Part shown: piece by piece, positions 44,253 through 64,000 of the stretch
Numbering within the stretch: the stretch's first letter is position 1
Layout of the letters: each line of letters begins with the position of its first letter
Virus record (IMG/VR): IMGVR_UViG_3300045988_098461
Location: 1 to 64,000 of that record
Origin: a virus
Length of the DNA stretch: 64,000 bases
Strand: one strand, 5' to 3'
Notes under the pieces: generated by a model
Databases searched by the model: none
Seen by the model: only the letters and a program-made list of their open reading frames with translations
Told to the model about the DNA's origin: nothing
Translations under genes and position numbers: made by a program

Positions 44253-44285
44253 TTACATTTTCTCGGAATATAAAATGAATAAACT

Positions 44286-44921: not shown

Positions 44922-44922
44922 T

Positions 44923-45213: not shown

Positions 45214-45222
45214 TATATCAAT

Positions 45223-46046: not shown

Positions 46047-46074
46047 AAATATCCGATTTTCTTAGTTTTGTATT

Positions 46075-46147: not shown

Positions 46148-46190
46148 GTAAATAATTAATAAATAGGTTTAACAATTAAAAGATACAACA

Positions 46191-46409: not shown

Positions 46410-46420
46410 GAGATACGACA

Positions 46421-46786: not shown

Positions 46787-46807
46787 CTCAATGAAGGAGA
46801 TACGACA

Positions 46808-47038: not shown

Positions 47039-47066
47039 TTAACGTTTAAAAATAGGAGATACAATT

Positions 47067-47453: not shown

Positions 47454-47457
47454 GCTT

Positions 47458-48416: not shown

Positions 48417-48607
48417 GAGCGATTTTAATCATCATAGGCGCATCCGTCATCGCATTGAGCAGCGTTGTTGCTGTTGGCGCAATGAATGGAAAATTAGAAG
48501 GTGTGGTAACCATACAAGAAAAAATCTTGATTACTATATTCTTATTCATCTTACTCATAACGGGTTGGGTGCTATTGTATAACGGAATATCAATAATTAA
48601 TCTGTAA
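48407..48607 (+). CDS. small 2-TM membrane protein
   Basis: ATG 48407 after GGAGGTG. Hydrophobic throughout. Confidence 0.45.
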   Translation: MGIGAILIIIGASVIALSSVVAVGAMNGKLEGVVTIQEKILITIFLFILLITGWVLLYNGISIINL

Positions 48608-48611
48608 TAAA

Positions 48612-49172: not shown

Positions 49173-49179
49173 CTTTGCT

Positions 49180-49374
49180 ATGGATAAAAATGATATTAGT
49201 CTAACAGTTATACTTGAAATCGGTGGTAACCTTTGCGGTATGACCATAAAGGATAAGGATGATAAAGTTGTGCTATTCGAGCATTTGTCATTTAATGAGC
49301 AAATTAAGATTCTCAATAGCCTTAGTCAGAATTATAACTGCCTTGTGCGGTTCTTAAAAGAAAAGGAGGGATAA
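49180..49374 (+). CDS. hypothetical protein
   Basis: 64-aa ORF. Confidence 0.45.
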   Translation: MDKNDISLTVILEIGGNLCGMTIKDKDDKVVLFEHLSFNEQIKILNSLSQNYNCLVRFLKEKEG

Positions 49375-49377
49375 GGT

Positions 49378-49467
49378 ATGAATTTGGTTCTATTTGTATT
49401 GATTATCATATCTGTTGGGGTTACTTTCGGATGTCTTGTGCAAGGTAATAATAATAAGGAGAAGTAA
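49378..49467 (+). CDS. 29-aa membrane peptide (hypothetical)
   Basis: MNLVLFVLIIISVGVTFGCLVQGNNNKEK fills the gap after an AAGGAGGG motif. Confidence 0.3.
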   Translation: MNLVLFVLIIISVGVTFGCLVQGNNNKEK

Positions 49468-49470
49468 AGT

Positions 49471-50319
49471 ATGGAAGCAACTATTTTATTAGGCAATCAT
49501 AATGATTGTAAGATTGATACGGGAAGATATGTAGAAACGGACGTTATGGGTTGGAAAGCCACTATCTATGTACCGAGTGGTATTGATAATGAGCAGATTC
49601 AGAAAGCCCTTGATTACGCTTATTCTACTCTCTGTCAGAGTTGCTATATGGAGTTTATCTTGGCAGACAACTTCCTTCTTATCTCTAAGGAGGTCTTTGA
49701 TAAGAAGAAGGTGTTTAAGTTCAATCTTAAAAAGCACTTTACTGAATGCCAAACATCTATTCGTGATACGATGAAGTTGTATGAGCGAAATATGGATGAA
49801 GACTACTATAATGAGTATTCTACCTATCTTTGGGATTTGATTAAGGATAAGGTTGAGAAGTTACGAAAGATGATTGAGGATAAGCTTCGCAATCTGAAAT
49901 GTAAGTATAACCCTTATCTCTGCTCGTATGTCATTATGATTCAGAACCTCGTACAGCAGATTAATGATACCCATATACACGTTATGGAGATTACCGAAAG
50001 GGAGTATGGAGTTGATATTGCTCCAAGCTACGAAAATTATCGGGCTAAAATGGCATTCACGCAAGCGGATAATTGTCTGTACGACATCATGCACGATGAA
50101 GCAGAGAAATTCCGTGACAATATCGTTAAAGATAAGAAGGTTATCGCCGTATGGTCTGATATAACAAGAACTCTCTATGACCCTATCAATGCAAAGAAGG
50201 CTCGTTTCTCGGCTTTCTATAGTATGCCTAAGGAAACACAAGCTCTCTATAATTTGAGAGAGGAGGATGGCTTCTGCGAGCCTAAAGAAGGTACTAAGAA
50301 ATTCAAGAAAGGAGCGTAG
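49471..50319 (+). CDS. hypothetical protein
   Basis: 282-aa ORF. Confidence 0.5.
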   Translation: MEATILLGNHNDCKIDTGRYVETDVMGWKATIYVPSGIDNEQIQKALDYAYSTLCQSCYMEFILADNFLLISKEVFDKKKVFKFNLKKHFTECQTSIRDTMKLYERNMDEDYYNEYSTYLWDLIKDKVEKLRKMIEDKLRNLKCKYNPYLCSYVIMIQNLVQQINDTHIHVMEITEREYGVDIAPSYENYRAKMAFTQADNCLYDIMHDEAEKFRDNIVKDKKVIAVWSDITRTLYDPINAKKARFSAFYSMPKETQALYNLREEDGFCEPKEGTKKFKKGA

Positions 50320-50322
50320 GGT

Positions 50323-51066
50323 ATGGAGTTAGATAATATTTACTTCGGAGATTGCATTAACCTTATGCGTGATATTCCTGATAAAAGCATAGATTTATGT
50401 GTTACGGATGCACCATATCTCCATAATAAATCGCCACTTAGTCCTACGTATGATGGGAGTGAATGGAATCAGAAAAGTTCCTTTGGAAAATCGGAGCTTT
50501 ATAAATATGGTGGTGATATGATGGGAGGGATGAGTTGTTTTGGCGAAGAAGAAATAGATAAGTTCCTTGATGCATTAAAGCCGAAAATGAAGATAATGAA
50601 TGCTTATATGTTCTGTTCGGAAGAACAGGTACCGTATTATTGTAACTGGGCTAATAAGAATGGCTTGATGTTTACAATACTCGTTTGGGAAAAGCCGTTA
50701 TCTATCATTAACAAAAATCGTTTTTCGCAGAACCTGGAGTACATAGTACGAGTATATGATTACGGTACTGCTCTTAATCGGTTAAATAATAACTTGTATT
50801 ATAATCGGGTAAAGAAAGAAAAACCGATTAACGGGAAAAGTAAGAATCATCCAACAGAAAAACCTGTCTCAATTATGCAAGAGTTCGTTGAACTGAGCAG
50901 TAATGAGGGTGATGTGGTCTTGGATGCGTTCTGTGGCTCTGGTACGCTTGCGATAGCGTGCATTAATACTAACAGACATTTCATTTGCTTTGAGAAGAAT
51001 AAAAAATTCTTTGATATTGCTAAGAAACGGGTTAAAGAACGGAAGCAACAACAAACAATTTGGTAA
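50323..51066 (+). CDS. DNA methyltransferase (beta-class N6A/N4C type, orphan)
   Basis: Motif IV-like VTDAPY near the N-terminus and motif I FCGSGT near the C-terminus. No adjacent restriction gene. Confidence 0.8.
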   Translation: MELDNIYFGDCINLMRDIPDKSIDLCVTDAPYLHNKSPLSPTYDGSEWNQKSSFGKSELYKYGGDMMGGMSCFGEEEIDKFLDALKPKMKIMNAYMFCSEEQVPYYCNWANKNGLMFTILVWEKPLSIINKNRFSQNLEYIVRVYDYGTALNRLNNNLYYNRVKKEKPINGKSKNHPTEKPVSIMQEFVELSSNEGDVVLDAFCGSGTLAIACINTNRHFICFEKNKKFFDIAKKRVKERKQQQTIW

Positions 51067-51078
51067 TTAGTTATAGGT

Positions 51079-51237
51079 ATGAATAGAGAAGATATGCGTA
51101 GGCTGATACATTATGCACGTATTCGTGCTAAGCAAAGAGGATTAAAATTATCCCAAATTACCATTGAAGAATGTATTAAAGATATGCAATTTTGGGAGAA
51201 AGGGATTTTTGCGTATGCGCCTTTTAAGGTATCTTAA
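51079..51237 (+). CDS. small protein (hypothetical)
   Basis: 52-aa ORF MNREDMRRLIHYARIRAKQRG... Confidence 0.35.
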   Translation: MNREDMRRLIHYARIRAKQRGLKLSQITIEECIKDMQFWEKGIFAYAPFKVS

Positions 51238-51399
51238 AGAATAGACGGATTCTCATTTTATCTTAATATATATGTTGTATCTCTTTGGGGGCGGTGGTCT
51301 CGGCTGCTGCTCCCTTCTGTAAGTATAATAAGTTTATCAAGGTAAAGAAATAAGTCTCTGATTCTTAACACGAAAGCTATTAAGCACTATTAATTCCGA

Positions 51400-51471
51400 T
51401 TTATTTCTATTAATATCAAAAATAGTTGGAGAAAAATTTGGTAGTTCGCAGATTTCTTTTTAATTTTGCGG
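51400..51471 (+). promoter_or_regulatory. promoter of the antirepressor unit
   Basis: AAATTTGGTAGTT -33-like element and TAATTTTG at 51461-51468. Confidence 0.55.
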
Positions 51472-51477
51472 CGTTCA

Positions 51478-51699
51478 ATAAAATATCAGTGGTGAGGTTA
51501 GAAGCTCTGCCACAAAAAGGTAGGGCGTTTTTTATGCTCGCTTCTTAACGGATTACGATATACGTGTATCGCTTCCCTTGGGTGTATTGTAATGGTGCAT
51601 CCGTGCTTTCACTGATAGGCATTGAACAAAGGGTAAAGCGGTACACTCTTTTTGTTGTATCAACCCGACAAGTGTTTAACGTTCAAAAATATCAGTTCA
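51478..51699 (+). promoter_or_regulatory. ~220-nt structured leader with early terminator-like hairpin
   Basis: GCTCTGCC-N7-GGTAGGGC plus GTTTTTT at 51504-51533. ATCAGTG (51485-91) is complementary to CACTGAT (51610-16). AAATATCAGT is repeated at 51481 and 51687, next to the ATG. Confidence 0.4.
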
Positions 51700-52563
51700 A
51701 TGGACGAAATTAAAATTTTGCACAAATCTACTTTCCTAGGTAAGGAAATAGATGTATGGGGAACTTTTGATAACCCATTATTTCGGGCAAGTGATGTAGC
51801 AGATTGGCTACATAACACAAATGTCTCTAATATGGTTAAGAAGGTTGATGAGGACGAAGTGACTAAGTTTAACTTAGGCAGTCGTCAAGGTGAAACTCTT
51901 TTTCTTACAGAGAATGGTCTTTATGAGATACTTATGTTATCTCGCAAGAAGGAAGCCAAGCAGTTTAAGAAGGGAGTAAAAGCTATCCTTCACGAAATCC
52001 GCACCAAGGGCGGCTACATTGCTTCTTCGGTCAATGATACTCCCGAAGCTATCATGGCACGAGCCTTGAAGATTGCGGATGAGACATTGAAGCGGAATGA
52101 GCAAAGAGTTCGTGAGCTTGAAGCTTAGACCGAGCAGCAGGCACAGACCATCGGCATTCAGCAGAAAGAACTGACTGTTGCCGCACCAAAGGTAAAGTAC
52201 TACGATGATACACTTGCATCAACGGACTGCCTTACCACCACACAAGTTGCTGATGACCTCGGTATCAGCGCAAGAGCACTCAATCAACAACTTTCCAATG
52301 CAGGTATTCAATACTTTCAATCAGGTTCTTGGCATTTGAAGGGCAAGTTCCGTGAATGGCAGCTCGCAAGCACCCGAACCTACAATTATATCAAGGGTGA
52401 TGGTTCTACGGGCACAAAAGTAAACCTCGTATGGAATCAACGTGGCAAGCGTTTTATTCTTGCTCTCTATAACAACGACTTTAATGTGAAAGATGCTATC
52501 GCTGAAATCAACGGCGAGAAGAGAGCTGCGCTTGTATCTAAAAACAATCAGTCTAACTTTTAA
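51700..52563 (+). CDS. BRO-N / KilA-C antirepressor interrupted by in-frame TAG (52126-52128)
   Basis: N-terminal BRO-N pattern (FRASDVADWL...LFLTENGLYEILMLSRKKEAKQF). After the TAG the same frame encodes APKVKYYDDTLAS...TTTQVADDLGISARALNQQL...WNQRGKRFI (KilA-C pattern) up to TAA 52561-63. Confidence 0.6.
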
Positions 52564-52583
52564 TTGAATAGGAGAAATCAAAA

Positions 52584-52826
52584 ATGGATAATCAGAATAT
52601 GATGATAGAGGTAACAGTTGATAATGATGCTACTCAGCGGTGTGTCGGTCTGCTTAAAGAACTTATGGCGGTACAGGAGAAGGCTATGAAGTTCTTGGTA
52701 TCTGAGGGTATTGATGATAGCAATGAGGGTACGATGATTGCCGAGGGCATCGGTAACGCAGTGAAAGCCTTTGGTGGCGTACTGCCAGAGGGTATCTACA
52801 ATAATGTAGTCGGTATTGAGGTTTAA
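52584..52826 (+). CDS. hypothetical protein
   Basis: 80-aa ORF after TAGGAGAAATCAAAA. Confidence 0.5.
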   Translation: MDNQNMMIEVTVDNDATQRCVGLLKELMAVQEKAMKFLVSEGIDDSNEGTMIAEGIGNAVKAFGGVLPEGIYNNVVGIEV

Positions 52827-52893
52827 TGTTATGCGTGAATAGGAGATACGCAATACAACAAGGTGTAAATAATTATAGGAGATACAAATGTAA

Positions 52894-52933
52894 AAGGCAG
52901 TACTTTGAAATACGTGCTGCCTTTGTTTTGTTT
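52894..52933 (+). terminator. intrinsic terminator
   Basis: AGGCAG...CTGCCT hairpin followed by TTGTTTTGTTT. Confidence 0.6.
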
Positions 52934-52976
52934 ATATATAATCTCTGTATTTTCCTGTTATTTACAGAAAAAACTA

Positions 52977-52984
52977 TACCTTTG
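52977..52984 (+). promoter_or_regulatory. -7 box (TACCTTTG) for the gp10-like paralogue
   Basis: 24 nt upstream of ATG 53008. Confidence 0.5.
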
Positions 52985-53007
52985 ACATGGTAAACAAAAT
53001 ATAAGTT

Positions 53008-53484
53008 ATGGCAAAAGTACAATTACGAATTAAGGGTATTGAAGCCCTCAAAAAGAAACTAATGGAGCAAAGAGAGATAATGATTAATTATCTTACATAC
53101 GCTATGGCTGAACTAGGTGAGCGTGCTGTCACCTATTCTAAGGATAACAAGGGTTATCAAGACCATACAGCAAATTTAAAGAACACCATTGATTATGCTT
53201 TATTTCTTGATGGCGAACTTGTGTGCGTTGGCGACCACGAGGAATTAAATGGAACTGAAAAAGATAAGGCTCATTTTATCCCTGATGCAGCAGTTAAGTA
53301 TGCTCAACAGCAAGGTGTTATTGCCCCCGAAGGATATTCTCTTATCATTGCATCTGGTGTAGATTACGGTCAACATGTAGAAAATAAGGGCTACAACGTA
53401 TTGTACCTAACAAAATTCTTTCTTAAAGATGAAATGAAAAAGATAATACTTAAAGCTATAGAGAATGCGAAGCAAAATAACTAA
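53008..53484 (+). CDS. HK97-gp10-like protein, intact second copy
   Basis: 158 aa. Collinear with 31678..32157 (MAKVQLRIKG..., KDNKGYQDHTANLKNTI, GYNVLYLTKFFLKDEMKKI). Confidence 0.6.
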   Translation: MAKVQLRIKGIEALKKKLMEQREIMINYLTYAMAELGERAVTYSKDNKGYQDHTANLKNTIDYALFLDGELVCVGDHEELNGTEKDKAHFIPDAAVKYAQQQGVIAPEGYSLIIASGVDYGQHVENKGYNVLYLTKFFLKDEMKKIILKAIENAKQNN

Positions 53485-53508
53485 GAGTGAGCCAACTGAC
53501 CCACTCTT
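53483..53508 (+). terminator. terminator hairpin
   Basis: AAGAGTG...CACTCTT directly at the stop codon. Confidence 0.5.
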
Positions 53509-53540
53509 AGTTTAGTATAGATGTCCGTAATTCTTATAAG

Positions 53541-53571
53541 AAAGGCAGGGCACTATCTGCGCTCTGCCTTT
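53541..53571. terminator. bidirectional terminator
   Basis: AAAGGCAG...CTGCCTTT with a T-run. Lies between convergent units. Confidence 0.6.
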
Positions 53572-53717
53572 TCTTTTTCTCTTTGCTTTCGTTCAGCCCT
53601 TGCGAGCCGAATTTCTTCATTAATCTCGTCCATCGTCATATTGACGTTATTCTTCCTAGCTTCTTCTATGAGAGCATTGAAGTTCTCTAAAGCCTTCTTC
53701 TTTTCTTCTTCTGTCAT
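53553..53717 (-). CDS. small charged helical protein (hypothetical)
   Basis: 54-aa ORF MTEEEKKKALENFNALIEEARKNN... TAATG overlap upstream. Ends in a TAG inside the terminator stem. Confidence 0.4.
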   Translation of the reverse strand: MTEEEKKKALENFNALIEEARKNNVNMTMDEINEEIRLARAERKQREKEKAERR

Positions 53718-54304
53718 TATTTTATATTAATCAGTTCGTTTCTATCTATCTTAGGAGCTTCCTTTTTATCTGAATCAAAGTCGAGTATATATTTTTGAGG
53801 ATAACTAATACAATGTAGAAAAATATACTTCCTCTCATCAATATTTATAGCCCTTACGACAAAGGTATCATTTCTATAAAAATATGAGTTATTATCATTG
53901 AGAGTGAAATCAGCTCTTATCTTCTCTTTGATGATATTATTATCAACGGGCGTTTGCTCATATCCGTTCTCGGTAAGTAGATAAAGAAGCTTTTCGTTAC
54001 TTTGCAGTTTTAAGTCTTTATATTGGTAATCCTGTCCAACAACAATAAAGCTACCTGTTAGCTCACCAAGATGTTTATCTACATAACTATATCCTATAAG
54101 GCTATATATGTTAGACAATACAACCGTATCTTTATTCATTTCATCAATAGGATGAGTAGAGATATATTGCTTGATAGTTTGTTTGGTTGCATCTGGTATA
54201 GGCGATAAGCTTGTTATCTTCTGTTGAGCGTTGGCTGTTATACAAAAGAGAAGTTCACTAAATATACATATCTTCTTTATCTGTTTCATATTATTTATCT
54301 TCAA
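53717..54304 (-). CDS. secreted protein (signal peptide), hypothetical
   Basis: N-terminal KKICIFSELLFCITANAQQ. Confidence 0.55.
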   Translation of the reverse strand: MKINNMKQIKKICIFSELLFCITANAQQKITSLSPIPDATKQTIKQYISTHPIDEMNKDTVVLSNIYSLIGYSYVDKHLGELTGSFIVVGQDYQYKDLKLQSNEKLLYLLTENGYEQTPVDNNIIKEKIRADFTLNDNNSYFYRNDTFVVRAINIDERKYIFLHCISYPQKYILDFDSDKKEAPKIDRNELINIK

Positions 54305-54641
54305 GTGTTATAAAAGTCAGATTATCTTTATCACAAGAAAACATAGCTTGCCCCACATTATAACCTCCGAAGCCATTTTTTGCTCTATATGTAACAACAA
54401 ACAACTTCTCTCCCTGTTTTGACGTTTCTTGCTCTTGCATATCAACGAACTCATAACTATCTGGGTCACGTAATCGTTGTTTGATTAAATCGCCAGCCAT
54501 CGTCTCAACATACTCCTTGTTTTCGTACAGAGGGGTATTCATAAGTTTTTCTGTCTCTTTTTTGTTTTCATTCTGTCCGATAGCTATCATTAAAAAGAAC
54601 AAAATAACAAGGATTCCAAGACATCCACATCCCTTCTTCAT
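54291..54641 (-). CDS. membrane-anchored/lipoprotein-like small protein
   Basis: MKKGCGCLGILVILFFLMIAIG anchor, then RLRDPDSYEF...YRAKNGFGGY domain. Confidence 0.55.
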   Translation of the reverse strand: MKKGCGCLGILVILFFLMIAIGQNENKKETEKLMNTPLYENKEYVETMAGDLIKQRLRDPDSYEFVDMQEQETSKQGEKLFVVTYRAKNGFGGYNVGQAMFSCDKDNLTFITLEDK

Positions 54642-54657
54642 AACTATATCTCCTATA

Positions 54658-54885
54658 TTAATATTTATAAATTGTACAATACCTACTTAAAACACGCTCT
54701 GCGGCGTTATCTTTTCCTTGCTTGGTATATACTAAGGCAAGGCGAAGATAACCCGTTCTGCGCAAGCAACCGAGGTACATCAGCCGCTCGTAGCAATATG
54801 TGGCTCTGCTTAGTATTCCATCACGGAGGTAGCGTTGAGCCATTGCCGCCAACTCCTTTGGTGATGCGTTATAAATCTGTGTCAT
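54658..54885 (-). CDS. small TPR-like protein (hypothetical)
   Basis: 75-aa helical ORF, first gene after the promoter. Confidence 0.45.
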   Translation of the reverse strand: MTQIYNASPKELAAMAQRYLRDGILSRATYCYERLMYLGCLRRTGYLRLALVYTKQGKDNAAERVLSRYCTIYKY

Positions 54886-54910
54886 AACTCGTCTGATTTG
54901 GTTATGTATG

Positions 54911-54918
54911 CAAAGGTA
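54911..54918 (-). promoter_or_regulatory. -7 box (TACCTTTG) for the accessory cassette
   Basis: Reverse complement TACCTTTG about 26 nt upstream of ATG 54885. Confidence 0.5.
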
Positions 54919-54994
54919 GCGAAAAAATGAATACTATATATTTATATTGCATTTTTTATATTAATATAACCTTAATTTACATATCAATATATTA

Positions 54995-55065
54995 AAAGCT
55001 ATTAAAATACTAATAAAAATACCGAAAAGATTTGGTGGTTTTAAAAGAAATTATTAATTTTGCGG
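54995..55065 (+). promoter_or_regulatory. early promoter cassette (near-identical copy of 46075-46147)
   Basis: TATTA-AAATAC-TAATA at 55000-55015, GATTTGGTGG, TAATTTTG at 55055-55062. Identical downstream GCGGTGTAAATAATTAATAAATAGGTTTAA. Confidence 0.6.
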
Positions 55066-55116
55066 TGTAAATAATTAATAAATAGGTTTAATATTTAAAT
55101 TATAGGAGATACAACA

Positions 55117-55299
55117 ATGAAAGTTAAATTGATTAATGGAACAGAAGTAGAAGCTAACGTTTTTGATTACGTTGCTCAGATTTACGAAGGTGGCAAATGG
55201 CAGGCAGTTGCCGTTAGCTCTGATTACAATGAAGCTGAAAAGAAACGTAAAGAGTATGCCGTAAAGGGCTGCTATACAAGAATAGAACAGCTTTACTAA
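55117..55299 (+). CDS. hypothetical protein
   Basis: 60-aa ORF after TAGGAGATACAACA. Confidence 0.5.
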   Translation: MKVKLINGTEVEANVFDYVAQIYEGGKWQAVAVSSDYNEAEKKRKEYAVKGCYTRIEQLY

Positions 55300-55324
55300 T
55301 TAATGATATATAGGAGATACGACA

Positions 55325-55750
55325 ATGAATAAGTACGCAGAATTAAAGAAGAAGCATCAGAAAGAGCTTAATAAATTGCCAATGAAAGCTGCTTTTGGTA
55401 AAGAGCAGTTTAAGAAAATGATGGAAGAGTGGGGGCTTACCACCAACGCCGAAGATATTAGTAAGATTGATATGCTCGTTTGTGGTTGCTATTGCTTAAA
55501 GGAAGATACCCATCTTTTCGAGGAGTACTTTCAGAGAACACAGAAAGAGCTTAAAGAGTTCTTAAAGGATGATGATAATCTTAAATCAGCATTCAAATAT
55601 GAGTTCGCTAACCATGAATGCGGATATACATATACACCGCAAGATGCGCTTCCTCCGCTTAATCTTACCTATGAAGAGGTTGAGAAGAATGAGCGTTTAA
55701 ATAGGGTCTTTAACGAGGCTTGGTGTGAATATTTAGATAAATGTGAATAA
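55325..55750 (+). CDS. hypothetical protein
   Basis: 141-aa ORF after TAGGAGATACGACA. Confidence 0.5.
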   Translation: MNKYAELKKKHQKELNKLPMKAAFGKEQFKKMMEEWGLTTNAEDISKIDMLVCGCYCLKEDTHLFEEYFQRTQKELKEFLKDDDNLKSAFKYEFANHECGYTYTPQDALPPLNLTYEEVEKNERLNRVFNEAWCEYLDKCE

Positions 55751-55753
55751 GAT

Positions 55754-56065
55754 ATGTATAAAGAAGGCGATGTTTTAGTACTTTATAATAATTGGCGTGC
55801 TGAGTATTGCATATTCATTCTACACAGAATATACAATGATGATTGGATAGAAGCTCATGCAAAGTATTCTCTCCCATTCAAAAAGCTTGGAGTAGGAGCA
55901 AATAATGCTTCTACAAACGTAAAATACTCTACGGGGTGTTTGAGAAAAGCGTATGAGGATGAAAGAGAATTTTTGTTAGAAAAAATGAAGGAAAAAGGTT
56001 ATTCATACGATTTTAAGAAGAATAAACTGCTACATTCATTCAATTATGAAAAAGGAAGAAATTAA
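55754..56065 (+). CDS. hypothetical protein
   Basis: 103-aa ORF. Confidence 0.5.
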   Translation: MYKEGDVLVLYNNWRAEYCIFILHRIYNDDWIEAHAKYSLPFKKLGVGANNASTNVKYSTGCLRKAYEDEREFLLEKMKEKGYSYDFKKNKLLHSFNYEKGRN

Positions 56066-56164
56066 GATAAATGAGCATTGTAAGCACTATTTCTTAGGCT
56101 TCTGCCACTTCTATTTAGGTGGCTGCTGCTCTGGTATTAAATGCGGATATAAATAATTAAGATT

Positions 56165-56386
56165 ATGACAAAGTTTATTGAGGTAAAGTATAAAGGGCAT
56201 TGTACCCTTGTAAATATAGATAATATCGCTTACGTTGAACCTTCACGAAATGGCGATATAGTAACATCTATAAAGCTTAATTGCAAGACCACACCAACGG
56301 GCGGTCAAGTGATTCTCTGCGAGGATGATTACCACACATTCTTGACTAGATTGGAAAACCTTGTTGTCGTTGATAAAGCTGAGTAA
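56165..56386 (+). CDS. hypothetical protein
   Basis: 73-aa ORF. Confidence 0.5.
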   Translation: MTKFIEVKYKGHCTLVNIDNIAYVEPSRNGDIVTSIKLNCKTTPTGGQVILCEDDYHTFLTRLENLVVVDKAE

Positions 56387-56389
56387 GAT

Positions 56390-56623
56390 ATGAGAGCATT
56401 TGACGTACTTTTAGCCTTACATCGCTTGGATATGCGACAGGGCAAGGATTATCTTGAAGCTCCTGAAAAGAATGATTTGGAGCTGAATGTGATAGAAGGT
56501 AAGCTGAAACGGAATCATTGGTATTGGTGCGATTTCCATAAGCAGCCAATGCTCGGCGAGCCTTCGGTTATCCTCACTCTTGGCGGTGGGGATATTCAAT
56601 ACCTTTATGAAGTAGAAAAGTAA
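56390..56623 (+). CDS. hypothetical protein
   Basis: 77-aa ORF. Confidence 0.5.
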   Translation: MRAFDVLLALHRLDMRQGKDYLEAPEKNDLELNVIEGKLKRNHWYWCDFHKQPMLGEPSVILTLGGGDIQYLYEVEK

Positions 56624-56636
56624 ATTAATATAAGTT

Positions 56637-56903
56637 ATGTATCAGATAAATGTTGTAACATATAGCACAAGAGTGGACGTAAAGAACGCTCGCCGCAAGG
56701 TAGCGAATCGACAAAAGAGAATGCTCGGAGGATGGTTTGAAAGCGTGAAATTAGCAAGAAAAGCCTTGAAAGAATTCTTTGAGAAGGAAGGCTATCAGAT
56801 AGGTAACGAGGTCGAGGAAAAGGGCAGCGAGACCTATGTTAAGACGTTATTCTTCGGTAACATTATGCTCGAAATGGAGTATAAGATAATCAAGTATAAT
56901 TAA
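56637..56903 (+). CDS. hypothetical protein
   Basis: 88-aa ORF. Confidence 0.5.
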   Translation: MYQINVVTYSTRVDVKNARRKVANRQKRMLGGWFESVKLARKALKEFFEKEGYQIGNEVEEKGSETYVKTLFFGNIMLEMEYKIIKYN

Positions 56904-56906
56904 TCT

Positions 56907-57146
56907 ATGGCTCGTTTCGCTCTCAGAAATCAGGAGAAGATAAAGCAAGCATTCGGGGAAGAAAGGTTGGATGAGCTTTTGAAAGCATTGAAGCTGTATT
57001 CTGCCAAGTACCCGAAATTATCGTTGAACACAATCATCGAAGAGGGTAAGCCTTATCCTTCTTTCGTAGTTGATAAGATTGCCGTATTATATGTAACTCG
57101 CCTGATGTATGACGTTTATCACGTTGCTTTAAAGGAGTTCTTATAA
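56907..57146 (+). CDS. hypothetical protein
   Basis: 79-aa ORF. Confidence 0.5.
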   Translation: MARFALRNQEKIKQAFGEERLDELLKALKLYSAKYPKLSLNTIIEEGKPYPSFVVDKIAVLYVTRLMYDVYHVALKEFL

Positions 57147-57300
57147 ACAAAAAGCACCGCCCTCGGAGATACGAATGAGGACGATGCTAGATGTAAATAA
57201 TTATTATGTTTAACGTTGTGAGTACATAGGAGATACGCACTCGATATAACAATTAATGCAAAAGTAATAAAAAATATTTGGTTATCTGAATATTTCTTCG

Positions 57301-57308
57301 TAAATTTG
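57301..57308 (+). promoter_or_regulatory. -7 box (TAAATTTG) upstream of the ADP-ribosylglycohydrolase gene
   Basis: 34 nt upstream of ATG 57342. TTTGG -33-like element at about 57278. Confidence 0.5.
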
Positions 57309-57341
57309 CGAATAATTAACATTAAAATAGGAGATACAGCT

Positions 57342-58130
57342 ATGATAGGAGCAATTATAGGTGATATTGTAGGCTCTAAATATGAGTTTAATAACACATT
57401 TGATTATAACTTTAAACTATTTGACGAAGGTTGTAATTTTACAGATGATACTATCTGTACAATAGCCGTAGCAGATGCTATTCTTAAAGAAGGTGGTGAT
57501 AAAAAGCCGAATGTCGGAGATTATTGTATCTCGCTTCAATACTGGTGTCAGAAGTATCTAAACCCAATGGGTGGGTATGGCGCAAGCTTCGCAAAATGGG
57601 TTCGTAGCTCTAATCCACAGCCTTATGATAGTTTTGGAAATGGAGCAGCTATGAGAGTTAGTCCTGTGGGTTGGGCATTCAAAGAAAATTCTGATATCAT
57701 TCATCAGGCAATGATGAGCGCAAAGGTTTCGCATAGCCATGTTGAAGGATTGATTGGTGCTATTGCGGTAGCAGATTGTGTACATGCTTTAAAAGCATAT
57801 AAACAAAAAGATTTGATTAGGGTAATAGCAAAACAATATTATGGCTCTGATTGGAATAAGAATCTTGTACCAAGAGGTAGATGGGCAGAAACTTGCCAAG
57901 AGTGCGTTCCTCTTGCCTTTAGAATAGTCCTTGATAGTGATAGCTTCGAGGACGCAATCAGAAATGCTGTATCCTACGGCGGTGATAGCGATACGATGGG
58001 AGCAATCGTTGGTTCAATCGCTCAGCCACTCTTTGGTATTCCACAAGAAATGAAGGAAAAAGCATTGAACTATCTCCCTTTGGATATGAAGAATGTAGTA
58101 ACTAAATTTATTGATAGATATGGTGAATAA
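57342..58130 (+). CDS. ADP-ribosylglycohydrolase family protein
   Basis: IGAIIGDIVGSKYE, FTDDT, GNGAAMRVSP, SHSHVEG and GGDSDTMGAIVGS are the canonical ARH metal/substrate motifs. Confidence 0.85.
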   Translation: MIGAIIGDIVGSKYEFNNTFDYNFKLFDEGCNFTDDTICTIAVADAILKEGGDKKPNVGDYCISLQYWCQKYLNPMGGYGASFAKWVRSSNPQPYDSFGNGAAMRVSPVGWAFKENSDIIHQAMMSAKVSHSHVEGLIGAIAVADCVHALKAYKQKDLIRVIAKQYYGSDWNKNLVPRGRWAETCQECVPLAFRIVLDSDSFEDAIRNAVSYGGDSDTMGAIVGSIAQPLFGIPQEMKEKALNYLPLDMKNVVTKFIDRYGE

Positions 58131-58455
58131 GGAAGATTTAATCAAGCACTGCCGATACTATAGAGGTGGTGAGAACCCAAATACCAACGAAAATATGGCT
58201 TGGTTTTGGGATATGGAAAGAGTGTATGTTAATAGCGAAGGAAAGTTTAAAGGTGAGGAAGAATATTATAAGAAAATCAATGGTAAGGAATATAAGGGGA
58301 TTCCACATACATTGCTTATTATAATGTTCACTTCATGGGCTAAAGCAGCCTTCAATATTAAGGAAGAGATAGGTAGGTTCTATAAGCTGATAGACGAATA
58401 CCTCTTTATCCCAAACGACCATTTCCCAGAGGATAAAATTCCAAACGAACTATAA
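58120..58455 (+). CDS. hypothetical protein
   Basis: ATG 58120 overlaps the ARH 3' end. CRYYRGGENP...WFWDMERVY. Confidence 0.5.
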   Translation: MVNKEDLIKHCRYYRGGENPNTNENMAWFWDMERVYVNSEGKFKGEEEYYKKINGKEYKGIPHTLLIIMFTSWAKAAFNIKEEIGRFYKLIDEYLFIPNDHFPEDKIPNEL

Positions 58456-58457
58456 CG

Positions 58458-58490
58458 AAAAAAGGTGCGCCGTAATGGTACACCTTTTTT
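58458..58490. terminator. bidirectional intrinsic terminator
   Basis: AAAAAAGGTG...CACCTTTTTT between convergent genes. Confidence 0.7.
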
Positions 58491-58492
58491 GT

Positions 58493-61297
58493 TTAATATC
58501 CGATATTGCTATCCTTTACATAAGATAAATCTCTTATTTCTTGCCCTATAACCTCGCAGTCTATGTAGGTCTTTCCACCTTCTTCATAAACCTTTGTTAT
58601 TCGCATTCGTGTTCCTCTCTGAAAGAGTGTTTCGTGCTCGGAACTATATGTTGAGAAACGACTTACTCCATCCCAACTTCTTTTATCACCACAACCGAAA
58701 GCAGAGAAAGGTTCTACGTAAGCAGCCTTTGTTCCTTTTGGTGCATATATGTTCATAATAACACTTCGAGTATTGAAGCCTTTTCCTTTTCGGCTACCAG
58801 TTGACATAAAACCACCTTCTTGCATTTCCATTCCAACAAGGTCTTGAAGGTTTTTTGGCATAGAACCGCCAGCAAACTTAATTCGTGATTCAATAACTTT
58901 CATTCCATCATCACCTCTTGTAAACCACATATCGGTAGGAAGTTCGTTCTTTTCTATATAGCTTGTTATATTATTAACCTTCTCTATGAACCTTTCCTTC
59001 GTTTGGTAACTATCATATTTTCTTCCTTGTAATGGTTCATTTACATCGCAATAATGATGAGTGTATTCGTATGTGAAATCTTTTTCTTTTTCTGTTGCTG
59101 CTATCCATTGTTTGGATGCAACATCTACGAGGGTTTTATCAGCTTTTGCACCATTACCCTTATCCCATACTGCGGCATCTTTCCTTGATTGAGAGAATCG
59201 GTCTGTATCAAATACAACATTCTTCGCATTTCGTTTTGCTTTCGCATTAATAAGCGTTTCTTTCTTTTGCTTAGCTTCATAAAGCAACTGCTCAGCAAGG
59301 GTCTTATCCTTTGCGAGCATGGCGTGTTCAAGGTCATAGATAAGCTTATGATATATCTTGCTCTGTGTCTTATAACCTTTTACGTCAGCATAAGCTTTAT
59401 TGATATTCACCCAATCAATCGCCGTTTTTACCTCATCAAGCTTTTTGAGATATGCCGCTTGCGATACCTTCCATGTAGCATACTTCTGTTGAACCCCGTG
59501 CATATTTCCACCAAGGAAATCAACTGCCTCAAATTGCAATTTGCTAACTTGCTTTTCAAGCGTCAAGCTTTGCCATTGAGCCAACTTTGCTTCTACGGCA
59601 TCATATACTCCGTGCAATTCCTGGGACGTGAACTGCTTATGCCACTTATTAACATCAGGGATGAGAGCAGAAAGTGATAATTCATCCTTTTTAATAGCAG
59701 AAATGGCGTTTGCGAGCGTTTTTGCTTCTTTCCTTGCTAATGTATAGTTAGCAGACTTTAATGCGATTAGAACGGCAGAAACATCGGTTTCTCCGTAATT
59801 AGCAGCCACCTTCATAACATTTATCGCAACCTTGCGGTCAGTCCATGCAAGTTTAGTCTGATAACCTCGCTTGAATCTATCAAACAAAGATGCTATCTCA
59901 GAAGCACTCTTTTTGTCCTTGATTGCGTAGCGGATAGCATAGTAACGTTCAAAGAGGTCTTGGCTCTTTATATCCGTAACAGATTTGCTACCGAGCAGAT
60001 TATGAACTAAGCCATTGTAATAGTCACGTCTATGCTTATCCCATCGGCTCTGTATCTTATCTATCTGCTCTTTAGTTCTAAGGGCGTGACGTTCCTTTGC
60101 CTTCGCAAGTATAAGCTCCTTAGAAGAAACCGCCTTTAACCCCAATTTCTTGCGGTCTAACGGGCTTAAAAGATGTGCCCAATACTTTGTATTATCTTGT
60201 AAGTGCCAAGCCAATTTACCCCTCATTCCTGCCTTCACAATAGCTTCGGAGTTATCCTTAATGTACTGATTGTACTTCTCGGGCATAGTGAGCACGGCAA
60301 AAGGGGATACGTAGTTGCTCATATCCTCGCCAGCCATTAAGCGTTTATAAAACTCCTTTTTCTCATCGCCTTGTATAGTGATAGGGTCTGAGGTACAGAT
60401 ACATTGAGGATGCCAAGAAATCCATACGTAATCTTTCGGGTAGCGACCTTCAAGGTCATTGCATATATCATCAATATTGTGCTGTGGTGATACGTGAATA
60501 TACTGACCGATAACGAACGGCTCGTTCTGCCATCGCTCGTTTCTTGCCTTGTGATATGCGGCATTTATCTCCGTTCTTGCTACTCTGAGAGCATTCTTTC
60601 TTGCCGAGCGGTAAACACCCATGCCTACTTTCTCTAATGGCTCTTCAATAAAGCGCACCTTGCCGTCAATGATTCTACGTCTGCGCCAAGTCACCACATC
60701 TTTCTTCTTTCCGTTCTTCTGAACCTTGATGGTATGATAACGGCGATACATCATATCTGGGTCATTAAGGTATCTGCGAATACTCTTGCCGATTTCCTCT
60801 GCTGATGAGCCTTGTTTGATTCCGTCCGCAATGGTGTTGCTCATAGCCATTTCAAACTCGCTCTTCGTCTGTTGGCAATAGTTCCAAACAATCTGAGCGA
60901 GATTCAATCCATTCTTTGTTTTCAAACGATTTGCAATAAACGTGGCTGCGGCGGTATCTCGTGCGACCCTTATTGCTTTATCAGTAAGCACGGAATAACC
61001 GCCTATAACCATTTCATCGTGGTTATACGCCAACGCAACGCCATCGGTGATGCCGCTCTTATAACAAAGAAGGCTATTCTGATAGTAATCATTAAAGATG
61101 TCGTTCAAACGAGCCTTTAACTGCGGAAAGTTATCAAAGTTAAAAAGCGCATCATCTTCGAGCACATCTTCTCCATAGCCAAGAGAGGTAAGCTTCTTGA
61201 CATAATCGCTGTATAATCTGCCCAACCGCTTATTATAAACGGCGAACAGATTATTCAGTTGTTCTTTCTGTTGTTTTGATGTGAGCTTCTTAGACAT
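58493..61297 (-). CDS. minor head protein (Mu F / SPP1 gp7-like) fused to a C-terminal ADP-ribosyltransferase domain
   Basis: N-terminal ARTEINAAYHKARN and WHPQCICT (MuF pattern). C-terminal WFTRGDD (Arg), FMSTGS (STS-like) and SSEHETLFQRGTRMRI (ExE), in R-S-ExE toxin order. Confidence 0.8.
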   Translation of the reverse strand: MSKKLTSKQQKEQLNNLFAVYNKRLGRLYSDYVKKLTSLGYGEDVLEDDALFNFDNFPQLKARLNDIFNDYYQNSLLCYKSGITDGVALAYNHDEMVIGGYSVLTDKAIRVARDTAAATFIANRLKTKNGLNLAQIVWNYCQQTKSEFEMAMSNTIADGIKQGSSAEEIGKSIRRYLNDPDMMYRRYHTIKVQKNGKKKDVVTWRRRRIIDGKVRFIEEPLEKVGMGVYRSARKNALRVARTEINAAYHKARNERWQNEPFVIGQYIHVSPQHNIDDICNDLEGRYPKDYVWISWHPQCICTSDPITIQGDEKKEFYKRLMAGEDMSNYVSPFAVLTMPEKYNQYIKDNSEAIVKAGMRGKLAWHLQDNTKYWAHLLSPLDRKKLGLKAVSSKELILAKAKERHALRTKEQIDKIQSRWDKHRRDYYNGLVHNLLGSKSVTDIKSQDLFERYYAIRYAIKDKKSASEIASLFDRFKRGYQTKLAWTDRKVAINVMKVAANYGETDVSAVLIALKSANYTLARKEAKTLANAISAIKKDELSLSALIPDVNKWHKQFTSQELHGVYDAVEAKLAQWQSLTLEKQVSKLQFEAVDFLGGNMHGVQQKYATWKVSQAAYLKKLDEVKTAIDWVNINKAYADVKGYKTQSKIYHKLIYDLEHAMLAKDKTLAEQLLYEAKQKKETLINAKAKRNAKNVVFDTDRFSQSRKDAAVWDKGNGAKADKTLVDVASKQWIAATEKEKDFTYEYTHHYCDVNEPLQGRKYDSYQTKERFIEKVNNITSYIEKNELPTDMWFTRGDDGMKVIESRIKFAGGSMPKNLQDLVGMEMQEGGFMSTGSRKGKGFNTRSVIMNIYAPKGTKAAYVEPFSAFGCGDKRSWDGVSRFSTYSSEHETLFQRGTRMRITKVYEEGGKTYIDCEVIGQEIRDLSYVKDSNIGY

Positions 61298-61689
61298 TAT
61301 TTACCCTTATAGTTCCTCTTGTAGAAAATAGCGATATTCACAGCACCGTTATCTTCGTAATAATATCCTTTCTTCGTAAGGTACGACTTTACGGTTGCTG
61401 CCTCGTTGTTTTTTAGCTGATTAAAATCAATATTGATGTAACCACCTAATTTCTTAGAAGTACCGTTTATAGCCTTGCTAATATCTACATTCGTCATATC
61501 CTTTATGTGTCGTGGCAAGGTTTTTGTGAATAAGGAAAACTTTGAACGGTCTATTTCTGTGATATTCTGATAATTCATCTGCTTACTTTCTGCCTTTGAT
61601 TTAATCTGAATATCTTTATTCGCATTTGTTCTGCTACTTGCAGCGTTTACACTGCTTATAGTACGTGTATTTCCACTTCCTTTTGCCAT
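61297..61689 (-). CDS. hypothetical head-module protein with conserved N-terminal tag
   Basis: MAKGSGNTRTISSVNAASSRT is paralogous to the N-terminus of 35932..36402. Lies between the portal and MuF genes. Confidence 0.5.
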   Translation of the reverse strand: MAKGSGNTRTISSVNAASSRTNANKDIQIKSKAESKQMNYQNITEIDRSKFSLFTKTLPRHIKDMTNVDISKAINGTSKKLGGYINIDFNQLKNNEAATVKSYLTKKGYYYEDNGAVNIAIFYKRNYKGK

Positions 61690-61691
61690 AG

Positions 61692-63203
61692 TTATTCCTC
61701 CTCTTCTTCTTCATTGGAAACTGACTGTCTTCCACTTGCGGCACTACCAAGTCCCGAAAGAGCTGCCTGCTGCGCCAACGCTTCTTCCTGTTCACTCTTC
61801 ATTTCTTCCTCAACCTTATCAGGGTCATCATTGAGAGGGTTAAGCTCGATGGCACGGCGATTAGAGGTAGATTTCGCACCACCATTGGATGAAGTGATAA
61901 GTTGCAACATTTCAACATCATTCTTTGGTAGATATGGCTTGAAGACTGGTTCAAAGTCAATCTGCTCAGCAACACTCTGGTCGATACCCTTTACGTAAAC
62001 TCCCGTATTACAGATGCCGTTAGCTACGATATTCGAGCGGCGAGTAAACATTTCACCGAACATTTCTGTCTTCAAATCTGCTTTCATATAAGGAGCAGTG
62101 AACATCAAACGGATAGCCGCACCCGAGGTGTTGCTGCCCAAGGTTTTCATATTCTCAAAGCTGATATCGGCTGTTGAGGTGAATGAATAGATGATATTGA
62201 AGAGGTAAGCAATTTCACCCTTCACACTCTCAGGTGATTTATCCCATGAAAGGACGTTCATACTTGCATCACTGCCACCTTGGAAGACTGTGCCTTGCTC
62301 GCCCTTCTCAGCGAAGCCCTCCAAACGACCTTTAATAAAGTACTTAGGCGTGCCGAAGTAGTCATTCGTATCACCCCAATTTGAGATACAAGTTTCCACT
62401 CTGTCAATAGCCCATTGAACATCTTCCCACTCAGCTTGGTCTTGTCTATAGTAAACGACAGGCACTTTGGTGAAGCCATGAGGTAGGGCAGAAATAAGCT
62501 TCCAACCTGCGCCATCAATATTAGTGTACTGATAGCACAATCTATCTGTATATACATCAAAATGTAGCTCAGATTTTCCAAGCTCATCATATACATAGTA
62601 CTCACGGGCGAAGCCGTCCATGATATGGAAATCGTTGAAATGAGGGTAGAGCTTATCGCCGTTTGAAGGTGAAAGCAACTGAACTCGGATTTCGCCTCGA
62701 AGCTTTCCCTCTGCGTCTGTTGGCATATACCATAACTCGGCGCACTCACATTCCTTGAAGAGGGTACGGGCAAGTCGCTTATCGAAGTACTTCATCTTGT
62801 TGTCGTGATAGCAGTGCATGATGCCGTCATATAGCTTCTGCTGCTTATCGTCCATCTTCTTTATATCAACACCATGTGCCGTAGCTTTATAGGTAACGGC
62901 ATTCATAAACAAGAAACCAACAGTAAGATTTGTGATTGACTTCTGAGCAGGGATAGCGATTCTTACTGGCTCAACTTTCTTATCCTTATAAATCGGTTTC
63001 TGTGTGATAGGGTCATACTGACCCGTAGGTACTTTGATTCGTTTCTTAGGACGGAAATCCTCATCAAAGATTTTATGCTTTGATGGATTCCATTGTTCTT
63101 CAAGCACACTCAGTGATGTCTTAAAGCCTTTCTTTCTTGCGGTCAATACCGAGCGGACTGTGTTCGCATCTTGTATTGATACTATCTGTTCTATTGCTCT
63201 CAT
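61692..63203 (-). CDS. portal protein
   Basis: 503 aa between the terminase and MuF genes. Acidic C-terminal tail ending EEEEEE. Confidence 0.75.
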   Translation of the reverse strand: MRAIEQIVSIQDANTVRSVLTARKKGFKTSLSVLEEQWNPSKHKIFDEDFRPKKRIKVPTGQYDPITQKPIYKDKKVEPVRIAIPAQKSITNLTVGFLFMNAVTYKATAHGVDIKKMDDKQQKLYDGIMHCYHDNKMKYFDKRLARTLFKECECAELWYMPTDAEGKLRGEIRVQLLSPSNGDKLYPHFNDFHIMDGFAREYYVYDELGKSELHFDVYTDRLCYQYTNIDGAGWKLISALPHGFTKVPVVYYRQDQAEWEDVQWAIDRVETCISNWGDTNDYFGTPKYFIKGRLEGFAEKGEQGTVFQGGSDASMNVLSWDKSPESVKGEIAYLFNIIYSFTSTADISFENMKTLGSNTSGAAIRLMFTAPYMKADLKTEMFGEMFTRRSNIVANGICNTGVYVKGIDQSVAEQIDFEPVFKPYLPKNDVEMLQLITSSNGGAKSTSNRRAIELNPLNDDPDKVEEEMKSEQEEALAQQAALSGLGSAASGRQSVSNEEEEEE

Positions 63204-63231
63204 ATATGAATATTTTTTGTTATAACAAGGG

Positions 63232-63239
63232 CAAAGTTA
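63232..63239 (-). promoter_or_regulatory. -7 box (TAACTTTG) upstream of the portal gene
   Basis: Reverse complement TAACTTTG about 29 nt upstream of ATG 63203. Confidence 0.4.
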
Positions 63240-63299
63240 GTAATAATATAACTTATATAGGCATGAAGAAGAAACCCTGTGTAAACAAAAGAAAAACGC

Positions 63300-63503
63300 C
63301 TATTTCGGCAGTCTTCCAATGTGCCAATGATTGCACTCACTACAAAGATATGCGGAGTAACCGAGTAGCCGCTTTTTCTTTATGTATCTTGCGGCTACCT
63401 TCTCATTATCAAAGGATAATTTGGCTACTCCTCTGCTATTATAGTGGGAGCGTTTACGATGATGCTCCCTTGGCTGTTTATCATATATTCGTTTCATAAG
63501 CAT
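63300..63503 (-). CDS. small basic zinc-finger-like protein (hypothetical)
   Basis: 67 aa with CSECNHWH. Lies between the terminase and portal genes. Confidence 0.4.
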   Translation of the reverse strand: MLMKRIYDKQPREHHRKRSHYNSRGVAKLSFDNEKVAARYIKKKRLLGYSAYLCSECNHWHIGRLPK

Positions 63504-63510
63504 TTCGATT

Positions 63511-64000
63511 TTAACCCATCAGACCGAGAATGTCGGCGGCTTGCATTCCGCTGCCATAATCGCCCAATAACTTCTCCATAACAACATATCGGCATGCATC
63601 TATAGCGTGATTATACATATCTATAGGCTCATTAAGCCACTTTCCTTCCTTATCTTGGCGATAGGTATAATTATTAAATTCCCTTCTTACATTTGTAGAG
63701 CGTTTTGTTATATGAATTGTGTATTCTTGCATCTTCATAATACTAGCTTGAATAGAACCTTTGAACTTCTTTACAGGTTTTATATCAATACCAGCATTAT
63801 AGATTTCATCTATCAGACGAGGGTCGGCACTCTCTGATATTACCTCAATATTTTTTTTATCCTCTTTCAATACTCTGATAATATCAGAAGAAAGCATTTC
63901 TGTCTGATAGCATATTTCATCTATATAGATAATCTTTCCGTAGATATATACATCAATAATCGCTGTAGGGTCATTGGAGTAACCAAAGTCAATGGCTCTG
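63511..64000 (-). CDS. terminase large subunit, C-terminal part (gene continues beyond the window)
   Basis: The frame is open to the window edge (…DFGYSNDPTAIIDVYI…). C-terminal IDMYNHAIDACRYVV nuclease motif. Confidence 0.8.
   Translation of the reverse strand, partial: RAIDFGYSNDPTAIIDVYIYGKIIYIDEICYQTEMLSSDIIRVLKEDKKNIEVISESADPRLIDEIYNAGIDIKPVKKFKGSIQASIMKMQEYTIHITKRSTNVRREFNNYTYRQDKEGKWLNEPIDMYNHAIDACRYVVMEKLLGDYGSGMQAADILGLMG

Follow-up and report, generated by a model that had tools for sequence, protein, structure and literature searches.

The region 57342-61297 of a 64,000-nucleotide stretch of viral DNA (IMG/VR record IMGVR_UViG_3300045988_098461, positions 1 to 64,000; the whole stretch is referred to as the window) very probably harbours a MuF polymorphic toxin-immunity module of the Bxa/BAH/Bsi type. 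A sequence-only reading of this region had described a two-gene pair, in which a virion-borne ADP-ribosyltransferase (ART) acts as writer and an ADP-ribosyl hydrolase of the ARH family as eraser. The 934-aa open reading frame (ORF) and the complete ARH gene on which that reading was built were both confirmed in the ORF list, and the pairing of an ART with an ARH holds. However, the locus has three parts instead of two. The MuF-ART toxin gene (58493-61297, minus strand) faces an ARH gene of 262 codons (57342-58130, plus strand) and a 111-aa ORF (from its ATG at 58120 to its stop at 58455, plus strand), and this small ORF, which had been missed, co-varies with the toxin allele.

Relation to the Bxa/BAH/Bsi system

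The three-part mechanism of a MuF-ART toxin, an ARH and a small binding protein is already known since 2024, and the idea of delivery in the capsid dates from 2017. Jamet et al. (2017; PMC5576092) established MuF polymorphic toxins as a family, which includes toxins with ART domains and small downstream immunity ORFs. It was proposed in the same study that MuF toxins are loaded in the capsid and injected with the DNA, with the ARTs of phage T4 as precedent. Bxa is an 869-aa MuF-ART member of this family, encoded by prophage PhiBxa of Bacteroides stercoris (Alexei et al. 2024; PMC11699363). Bxa kills E. coli via promiscuous arginine ADP-ribosylation, which is abolished by the substitution E820A. 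BAH, the ARH adjoining bxa, reverses the modification, BAH alone rescues Bxa-expressing cells, and the E15A variant of BAH is inactive. Bsi, a small protein encoded beside bxa, binds and blocks Bxa. BAH-like and Bsi-like genes co-occur with bxa orthologues in gut Bacteroidales (all PMC11699363).

All three proteins of the window are detectably homologous to those of this system, and the layout is alike, with a three-domain protein (probable MuF, middle and ART domains) in the portal module facing a small ORF and an ARH gene. The catalytic R, S and ExE residues of the ART and E15 of the ARH are shared as well. PHROG 16625 ('Bxa ADP-ribosyl transferase') matches residues 492-928 of the toxin (2.5e-123). 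Bxa-type proteins were recognised by the 16 Bxa interface residues given in Table S1 of PMC11699363. A protein of 869 aa with 16/16 of these residues at the same positions is found in the cultured Bacteroides phage Versailles (ON453897, host B. caecimuris), where its annotation reads 'hypothetical protein' only. Downstream of the toxin gene in the Versailles locus (L112, 24222-27961) come, in facing orientation, a 107-aa ORF and the gene for a 257-aa ARH with E15; 9/11 published Bsi residues fit on the 107-aa ORF at a 3-residue offset when read by eye. The Bxa-like loci L093-L099 encode 969-aa relatives with 14/16 residues in constant register and show the same gene order. This order (portal, small ORF, and MuF-ART gene facing small ORF and ARH) is common to the window, Versailles and L093-L099.

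The full-length toxins of the window and Versailles are 30% identical over 981 columns (E 1e-104), and BLASTP of the window toxin against the Bxa-like protein P0173 gave an E value of 1e-124. For the ART domain alone, the identity to Versailles is 34% (E 3e-38), with R794, S832 and E887/E889 of the window toxin aligning on R719, S757 and E818/E820 of Bxa. The ARH of the window is 52% identical to ARHs beside Bxa-type toxins, with E values from 4e-92 (Versailles) to 6e-98.

Several points weigh against the assignment of the locus to the Bxa type. The window module is likened to Bxa/BAH/Bsi from sequence and predicted structure. Furthermore, the Versailles protein serves as a stand-in for Bxa itself, on account of its equal length and its 16/16 interface residues; a search seeded with P0173 contained no 869-aa protein among the matches listed. 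In the Bsi position the small ORFs of the window and Versailles display weak pairwise similarity (25% identity, E 3e-4), and only some positions of the published Bsi interface could be located in the window ORF. With an identity of only 34-37% to Bxa-type domains, the toxin domain may have other targets and another potency. On the N-terminal domain of the toxin, Pfam Phage_Mu_F (PF04233) scores 18.5 bits, under its cut-off of 29.6. Finally, the ARH gene is missing from 11 of the 58 loci of the lineage described below, and is not essential there.

The window differs from Bxa/BAH/Bsi in phage backbone (N-domain 31% identical) and, as suggested by a match to a Prevotella genome, probably in host genus. 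The third ORF beside the ARH in the Bxa system (BACSTE_RS09440 type) has no homologue at the window locus. Two candidate correspondences were rejected. The 79-aa ORF beside the ARH of L093 and a window ORF of equal length (56907-57146), which lies upstream of the ARH, proved not to be homologous. The agreement of R86 and K89 of the window small ORF with Bsi-numbered residues is coincidental; in the family alignment the Bsi stretch NR..KY.E aligns with FTSWAK of the window.

The toxin protein

Residues 690-934 of the toxin (58496-59230, minus strand, as are all toxin coordinates below) make up a C3/VIP2-type R-S-ExE ART domain. Pfam ADPrib_exo_Tox (PF03496) matches residues 723-912 (E 9.7e-25, 87.5 bits against a cut-off of 23.4). 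The Arg, STS-like and ExE motifs were located in the order that had been proposed from the sequence, as WFTRGDD (residues 791-797, 58907-58927), FMSTGS (residues 830-835, 58793-58810) and SEHETLFQRG (residues 886-895, 58613-58642). Three alignments of diverse relatives (16, 27 and 21 sequences) show the catalytic residues R794, S832, E887 and E889 to be conserved, invariant or nearly so. Arginine is the acceptor associated with an ExE motif, as opposed to QxE.

The AlphaFold2 model of residues 690-934 (pLDDT 95.7, pTM 0.92) was compared with solved structures by Foldseek and retrieved the ART fold; a non-ART fold was not found. The best match is the Listeria ART of an ART-ARH toxin effector-immunity pair (8za7_B, E 6.7e-15), and further matches are Plx2A, C3bot, Certhrax, CDTa and VIP2. 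Target-normalised TM-scores of the model against 8za7_B, Plx2A and C3bot range from 0.72 to 0.84.

The N-terminal part of the toxin (residues 1 to ~390, 60128-61297) had been read as a Mu F/SPP1 gp7-like domain. It matches PHROG head-morphogenesis and minor-head families (7625, 115, 1657) at 8.8e-37 and 2.6e-19. With an AlphaFold2 model of residues 1-700 (pLDDT 82.7), Foldseek found minor capsid and MuF-like minor capsid proteins in BFVD (E 8e-7 to 1e-3) and nothing significant in the PDB. Despite the sub-threshold Pfam score mentioned above, these PHROG and structural matches make it most likely that this part is a MuF domain. The middle domain (residues ~391-689, 59231-60127), in which no recognisable motif had been seen, is all-helical in the AlphaFold2 model and has no significant PDB match. 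It evolves with the phage backbone and not with the toxin, being 85-97% identical across the toxin alleles of the same lineage. The top structural match to residues 1-700 is BFVD A0A8S5Q538 (36% identity, E 2e-39), a 1098-aa protein of an uncultured siphovirus that is labelled 'Intein splicing domain' and may be an intein-interrupted MuF homologue.

The hydrolase, the small open reading frame and their operon

The ARH belongs to PF03747 (111.8 bits against a cut-off of 26.2, E 6.2e-32) and has its E15, TDDT and DSDT motifs intact. E15, T34-D35-D36-T37 and D215-S-D217-T218 are invariant in 65 distinct toxin-linked ARHs. Sequence matches in the PDB are MJ1187, a Thermus ARH, ARH3, DraG and ARH1, with a weak match to 8za7_A. 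Among the NCBIfam equivalogs, DraG scores 51.6 bits (cut-off 337) and Tri1 32.9 bits (cut-off 490). By these scores the ARH is related to DraG and Tri1, both Arg-ADP-ribose hydrolases, but is a member of neither equivalog family. The ExE motif of the toxin and the weak DraG/Tri1 affinities of the ARH are consistent with arginine ADP-ribosylation and its reversal. The toxin and the 111-aa ORF had no match in NCBIfam.

Between the ARH and toxin genes lie 362 bp, which agrees with the distance of less than 400 bp noted earlier, but this gap is not empty. It is filled by the 111-aa ORF, which abuts a hairpin. The first 11 nt of this ORF overlap the end of the ARH gene, stop codon included (ATGGTGAATAA), and the ORF is translationally coupled to the ARH. 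Both the 262-aa and the 111-aa product were also predicted by independent gene callers on metagenome contigs. The 111-aa product matches PHROG 19606. Together with the ORFs in the Bsi position of Bxa-type loci it belongs to a single family (alignment A3), marked by the blocks CRYY.G, W..E..WV and P.TLKALLF.R, in which the window ORF represents a divergent subclass with a C-terminal IPNDHFPEDKIP tail. A profile of A3, which includes the window ORF, scores this ORF at 3.8e-38. A profile search of the window revealed a single Bsi-family ORF, so no orphan or poly-immunity genes were found. The 111-aa ORF is predicted to encode an allele-specific, toxin-binding immunity protein.

The small ORF and the toxin gene have their stop codons 37 nt apart, and this spacer folds into a hairpin (58458-58490) flanked by A6 and T6. 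Its free energy is -16.1 kcal/mol (z -3.74), and 0/200 shuffled sequences folded as well. The shared bidirectional terminator of the sequence-only reading is recognisable in this hairpin, but it adjoins the small ORF and not the ARH. It would be a bidirectional intrinsic-terminator-like element that closes an operon of ARH and small ORF rather than the ARH gene alone.

The ARH had also been assigned a promoter of its own. A consensus promoter and terminator scan picked up neither a sigma-70 promoter upstream of the ARH nor the hairpin, and a search for the Bacteroidetes consensus (TTTG-N18-21-TAnnTTTG) and direct folding were used in its place. The Bacteroidetes-type search yielded a site at 57277-57308 (plus strand; TTTG-N20-TAAATTTG), 34 nt before the ARH ATG. 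The window holds 9 sites of this type versus 1.8 expected from shuffled sequences. The site 57277-57308 is conserved in relatives, and in those lacking the ARH it is found directly in front of the small ORF. This promoter-like site would drive the ARH/small-ORF operon.

Polymorphism of the locus in related phages

A scan of IMG/VR yielded 74 loci, and 58 of the loci compared have the backbone of the window, as defined by clustering the N-terminal 400 residues at >=85% identity. In these 58 loci the N-domain is mostly 96-100% identical to that of the window, and the portal protein mostly 94-100%, with 81-84% in about 9. On this nearly constant backbone the last ~245 residues of the toxin occur as four ART alleles, which are all Pfam ARTs and are 29-41% mutually identical. 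Between alleles the protein identity drops from ~95% to ~35% around residues 650-690. At the DNA level, sliding comparison of the window with other alleles (L024, L046, L040) showed identities of 35-60% inside 58176-59375 and of >=85-100% outside; the left edge is variable and lies between 59300 and 59450, and the DNA on either side is >=90% identical from allele to allele. The swapped unit is therefore a hypervariable toxin-immunity cassette of ~1.2 kb, consisting of the ART domain, the terminator and the small ORF minus its first ~55 nt. The definition of such a sharply bounded cassette is one of the gains of this analysis.

Among the 58 loci the class of the small ORF corresponds one-to-one to the ART class (adjusted Rand index 0.97, a value reached by 0/2000 permutations). 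ARH classes are spread over the ART classes, with an adjusted Rand index of 0.11. The absence of the ARH in 11 loci is an exact insertion or deletion at the level of the ORF: the promoter-like site, leader and ATG context are unchanged and the small ORF takes the place of the ARH. The ART and small-ORF allele of the window recurs, at 70-74% and 59-66% identity on backbones with N-domains that are only 27-33% identical, and the toxin-immunity cassette evidently moves between backbones. A Bsi-family ORF occurs within 2.5 kb in 19, and an ARH in 17, of the 28 backbone clusters that could be evaluated. The co-occurrence of toxin and ARH genes thus extends beyond this phage, up to and including the cultured Bacteroides phage. 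Such a pattern is the classic one for a polymorphic toxin whose binding immunity protein is cognate and co-evolves with it, with the hydrolase behaving as a generic and optional second layer. It lends population-level support to a division of labour between an allele-bound small ORF and a hydrolase that acts generically and can be dispensed with. The four natural toxin/immunity alleles, with and without ARH, are a ready set for comparing cross-immunity.

Some other MuF toxin loci deviate from this scheme. L104 and L105 (5001-7133) encode glutamine-deamidase MuF toxins (PF15644, 1.2e-16) with a different small ORF and without ARH; their backbone is related to Bxa-like phages and their architecture agrees with those in PMC11699363. 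L101 (5001-7943) and L106 (5001-7667) encode MuF toxins with C-domains that have no Pfam match, and carry an ARH (258-264 aa) in the immunity position; the ARH of L106 is 64% identical to that of the window. The ARH of L101 and L106 either accompanies a very divergent ART or has been kept as an orphan immunity gene. In L065:744-3716 and L066:4528-7500 a related backbone, with an N-domain identity of 79%, bears a 990-aa toxin and no ARH. The C-domain of this toxin shows only a marginal ART match (E 0.0078, last ~40 residues), and a 102-aa ORF after the L065 toxin (L065:3721-4029) aligns with the Bsi family, lacking the CRYY motif.

The allele of the ARH is nearly unlinked to that of the toxin, the gene behaves as a clean presence/absence cassette, and ARHs also occur beside MuF toxins whose C-domains are not recognised by Pfam as ART (L101, L106). 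These observations would fit an ARH that is independent of this toxin and acts as an accessory-hotspot gene against a host defence based on arginine ADP-ribosylation, or as a shield of the lysogen against ARTs of foreign phages or type VI secretion systems (T6SS). ARH immunity against an incoming ART is indeed known from Tre1-Tri1 (cited in PMC11699363). Such independence is nevertheless very improbable. The ARH is always found in the immunity position, translationally coupled to the cognate small ORF, and none occurs beside the glutamine-deamidase toxins L104 and L105. A generic eraser of Arg-ADP-ribose is expected to be allele-independent anyway. No anti-phage defence by an arginine-specific ART is known in this context, and PADLOC gave no match for any of the four proteins scanned at the locus, so that the suggestion that the ARH counters host defence found no support. 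BAH alone, moreover, rescues Bxa-expressing cells (PMC11699363).

The polymorphism also bears on the target of the toxin. For Bxa, as summarised in PMC11699363, the published role is that of a colonisation factor: the ART is released at lysis and ADP-ribosylates cytoskeletal proteins of epithelial cells, which provides nutrients for the lysogen, and immunity would serve only to survive production of the toxin. The presence of the exact toxin protein of the window on many human-gut metagenome contigs fits such a role. Against it stand the identity of only 34-37% to Bxa-type toxin domains and the four very different alleles in one lineage. Four alleles with matching immunities are typical of antagonism among bacteria or phages rather than of one conserved eukaryotic target, and it is rather unlikely that the window toxin is a colonisation factor aimed at the animal host. 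It can also be speculated that the four-allele polymorphism reflects warfare between phages, in which the toxin is delivered with superinfecting DNA, a resident prophage survives only with a small ORF that matches the incoming allele and the ARH is a universal antidote. The spread and loss of the ARH independently of the toxin allele would then follow from its action against every Arg-ART allele. This proposal is quite unlikely as it stands. If true, the locus would be a natural system of competing specific and generic immunity with a capsid protein as delivery device.

Proposed mechanism and delivery

In the module of Bxa/BAH/Bsi type that is favoured here, the late packaging operon would yield a minor head protein of which the MuF and helical middle domains belong to the phage backbone and the last ~245 residues are an exchangeable ART. 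This ART tail is predicted to modify arginines on many proteins and to be toxic to bacteria. A separate two-gene antidote operon would be expressed from the Bacteroidetes-type promoter and end at the hairpin shared with the toxin gene. The ARH would remove Arg-linked ADP-ribose from any modified target, independent of the toxin allele and as an optional component, and the 111-aa Bsi-family protein is predicted to bind and block the active site of its own ART allele. Together they would keep the producing cell, and possibly a lysogen, alive while the toxin is made and, presumably, packaged, with the MuF domain probably taking the toxin into the capsid. Protection of the producing cell, one of the roles proposed for the ARH in the sequence-only reading, has been demonstrated experimentally for the homologue BAH (PMC11699363) and would by analogy apply here. 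Toxicity, arginine specificity, reversal as by BAH and binding as by Bsi are inferred for the window allele from homologues that are 34% (toxin domain), 52% (ARH) and 25% (small ORF) identical. The final site of toxin action may be the infected bacterium, competitors after lysis or the host epithelium, and may differ between alleles.

T4 Alt is likewise a phage-borne ART of the R-S-E type thought to travel in the capsid. It differs from the window toxin in not being a MuF fusion and in lacking a hydrolase or immunity gene linked to it. That T4 Alt is packaged and injected is established; for the window toxin injection from the virion and a time-limited modification, both put forward from the sequence, are hypotheses. 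They would amount to an injected writer with a timed eraser, in which a few capsid-borne toxin molecules enter with the DNA and modify host proteins in favour of takeover, until the early ARH/small-ORF operon switches the modification off. The toxin gene follows the portal gene and its product probably has a MuF-type fold. In SPP1, gp7 sits inside the capsid, attached to the portal (summarised in PMC5576092), and the injection model for MuF toxins has been proposed by Jamet et al. (PMC5576092). In addition, the immunity operon has a promoter of its own, lies at the end of the plus-strand non-structural block and would be transcribed apart from the late operon. The literature examined, however, shows packaging or ejection for no MuF toxin, and a tblastn search with the ART domain in 50,697 phage records (E<=1e-5) retrieved no T4-like record. 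The biological role of MuF toxins is stated as unknown in PMC11699363, and the effects reported there for Bxa are an action on epithelial cells and promiscuous killing of bacteria, not a tuning of them. Injection of a timed writer is possible but doubtful, and is compatible with the Bxa-type module as an additional role. The cultured phage Versailles is a possible experimental handle on packaging and injection of MuF toxins.

Comparison with other toxin-immunity systems

The locus shares with MuF polymorphic toxins a conserved N-terminus, which is most likely of the MuF type, the swappable C-terminal toxin and an adjoining small ORF with a predicted role in immunity. In MuF toxins the immunity genes follow the toxin gene in the same operon, whereas those of the window face the toxin gene and have their own promoter. 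A two-tier immunity of one hydrolase and one binding protein is also found in Apk2/Aph1/Tis1, in which the toxin Apk2 is a (p)ppApp synthetase; the chemistry at the window locus is ADP-ribosylation. Neutralisation of an arginine-type ART by an ARH-fold hydrolase, as predicted for the window, is shared with Tre1-Tri1 of Serratia (T6SS) and Lmo0066-Lmo0067 of Listeria (PDB 8za7). These two toxins are delivered by T6SS or another secretion route and not as a fusion to a capsid protein. Furthermore, Tri1 combines binding and hydrolysis in one protein, but the window locus, like BAH/Bsi, would split both functions over two proteins.

Genomic context

The toxin gene lies in the packaging module beside the portal gene. 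The minus-strand order is a fragment of the terminase gene TerL (63511-63897, from the ORF list), which is first in the packaging operon, the SPP1-type portal gene (61692-63203; PF05133, 4.9e-43), a 130-aa ORF without family match (61297-61689) and the toxin gene as the last gene. The window is largely a siphovirus-like genome, with a 1714-aa tape-measure gene (24764-29908) and a major head protein.

The exact toxin protein occurs on >=23 metagenome contigs, and the single record with a named source is a contig of 184,885 bp (ERZ917644 k127_28869) from a human gut metagenome. Among species-representative genomes the nearest match is a Prevotella metagenome-assembled genome (96%, on a contig of 124 kb). 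A scan of these genomes gave 18 loci, and B. stercoris was not among them. Megablast of 57000-61700 against the 50,697 phage records gave no match, and in its DNA the region resembles no cultured phage. The carrier is probably an uncultured human-gut phage of Bacteroidales, of a different and very prevalent lineage, with Prevotella as host. The Bxa/BAH/Bsi system would hereby be extended to this lineage. No integrase is present among the window ORFs scanned. The 184,885-bp gut contig with the exact toxin protein and the 124-kb Prevotella contig suggest integration.

The packaging genes (58493-63897, minus strand) are separated from the head and tail genes (6787-39407, minus strand) by a plus-strand block of ~18 kb (40000-58455), and the GC skew flips at ~40 kb and ~58 kb of the window. 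Four plus-strand promoter-like sites (39621-39652, 46112-46143, 51437-51468 and 55031-55062) share the extended consensus TTTGGTAGTTT...AAATTATTAATTTTG, which goes past the -33 and -7 elements. Their likeness suggests a family of phage promoters that would drive the plus-strand block from 40 to 58 kb. Downstream of the tape-measure gene, a 3042-aa ORF (15189-24317, minus strand) matches only PHROGs of unknown function, over its first ~850 residues only. Only ~10 of the 58 lineage loci have the 130-aa ORF (98-100% identical) that separates the portal gene from the toxin gene, which makes the portal-MuF junction a second variable spot.

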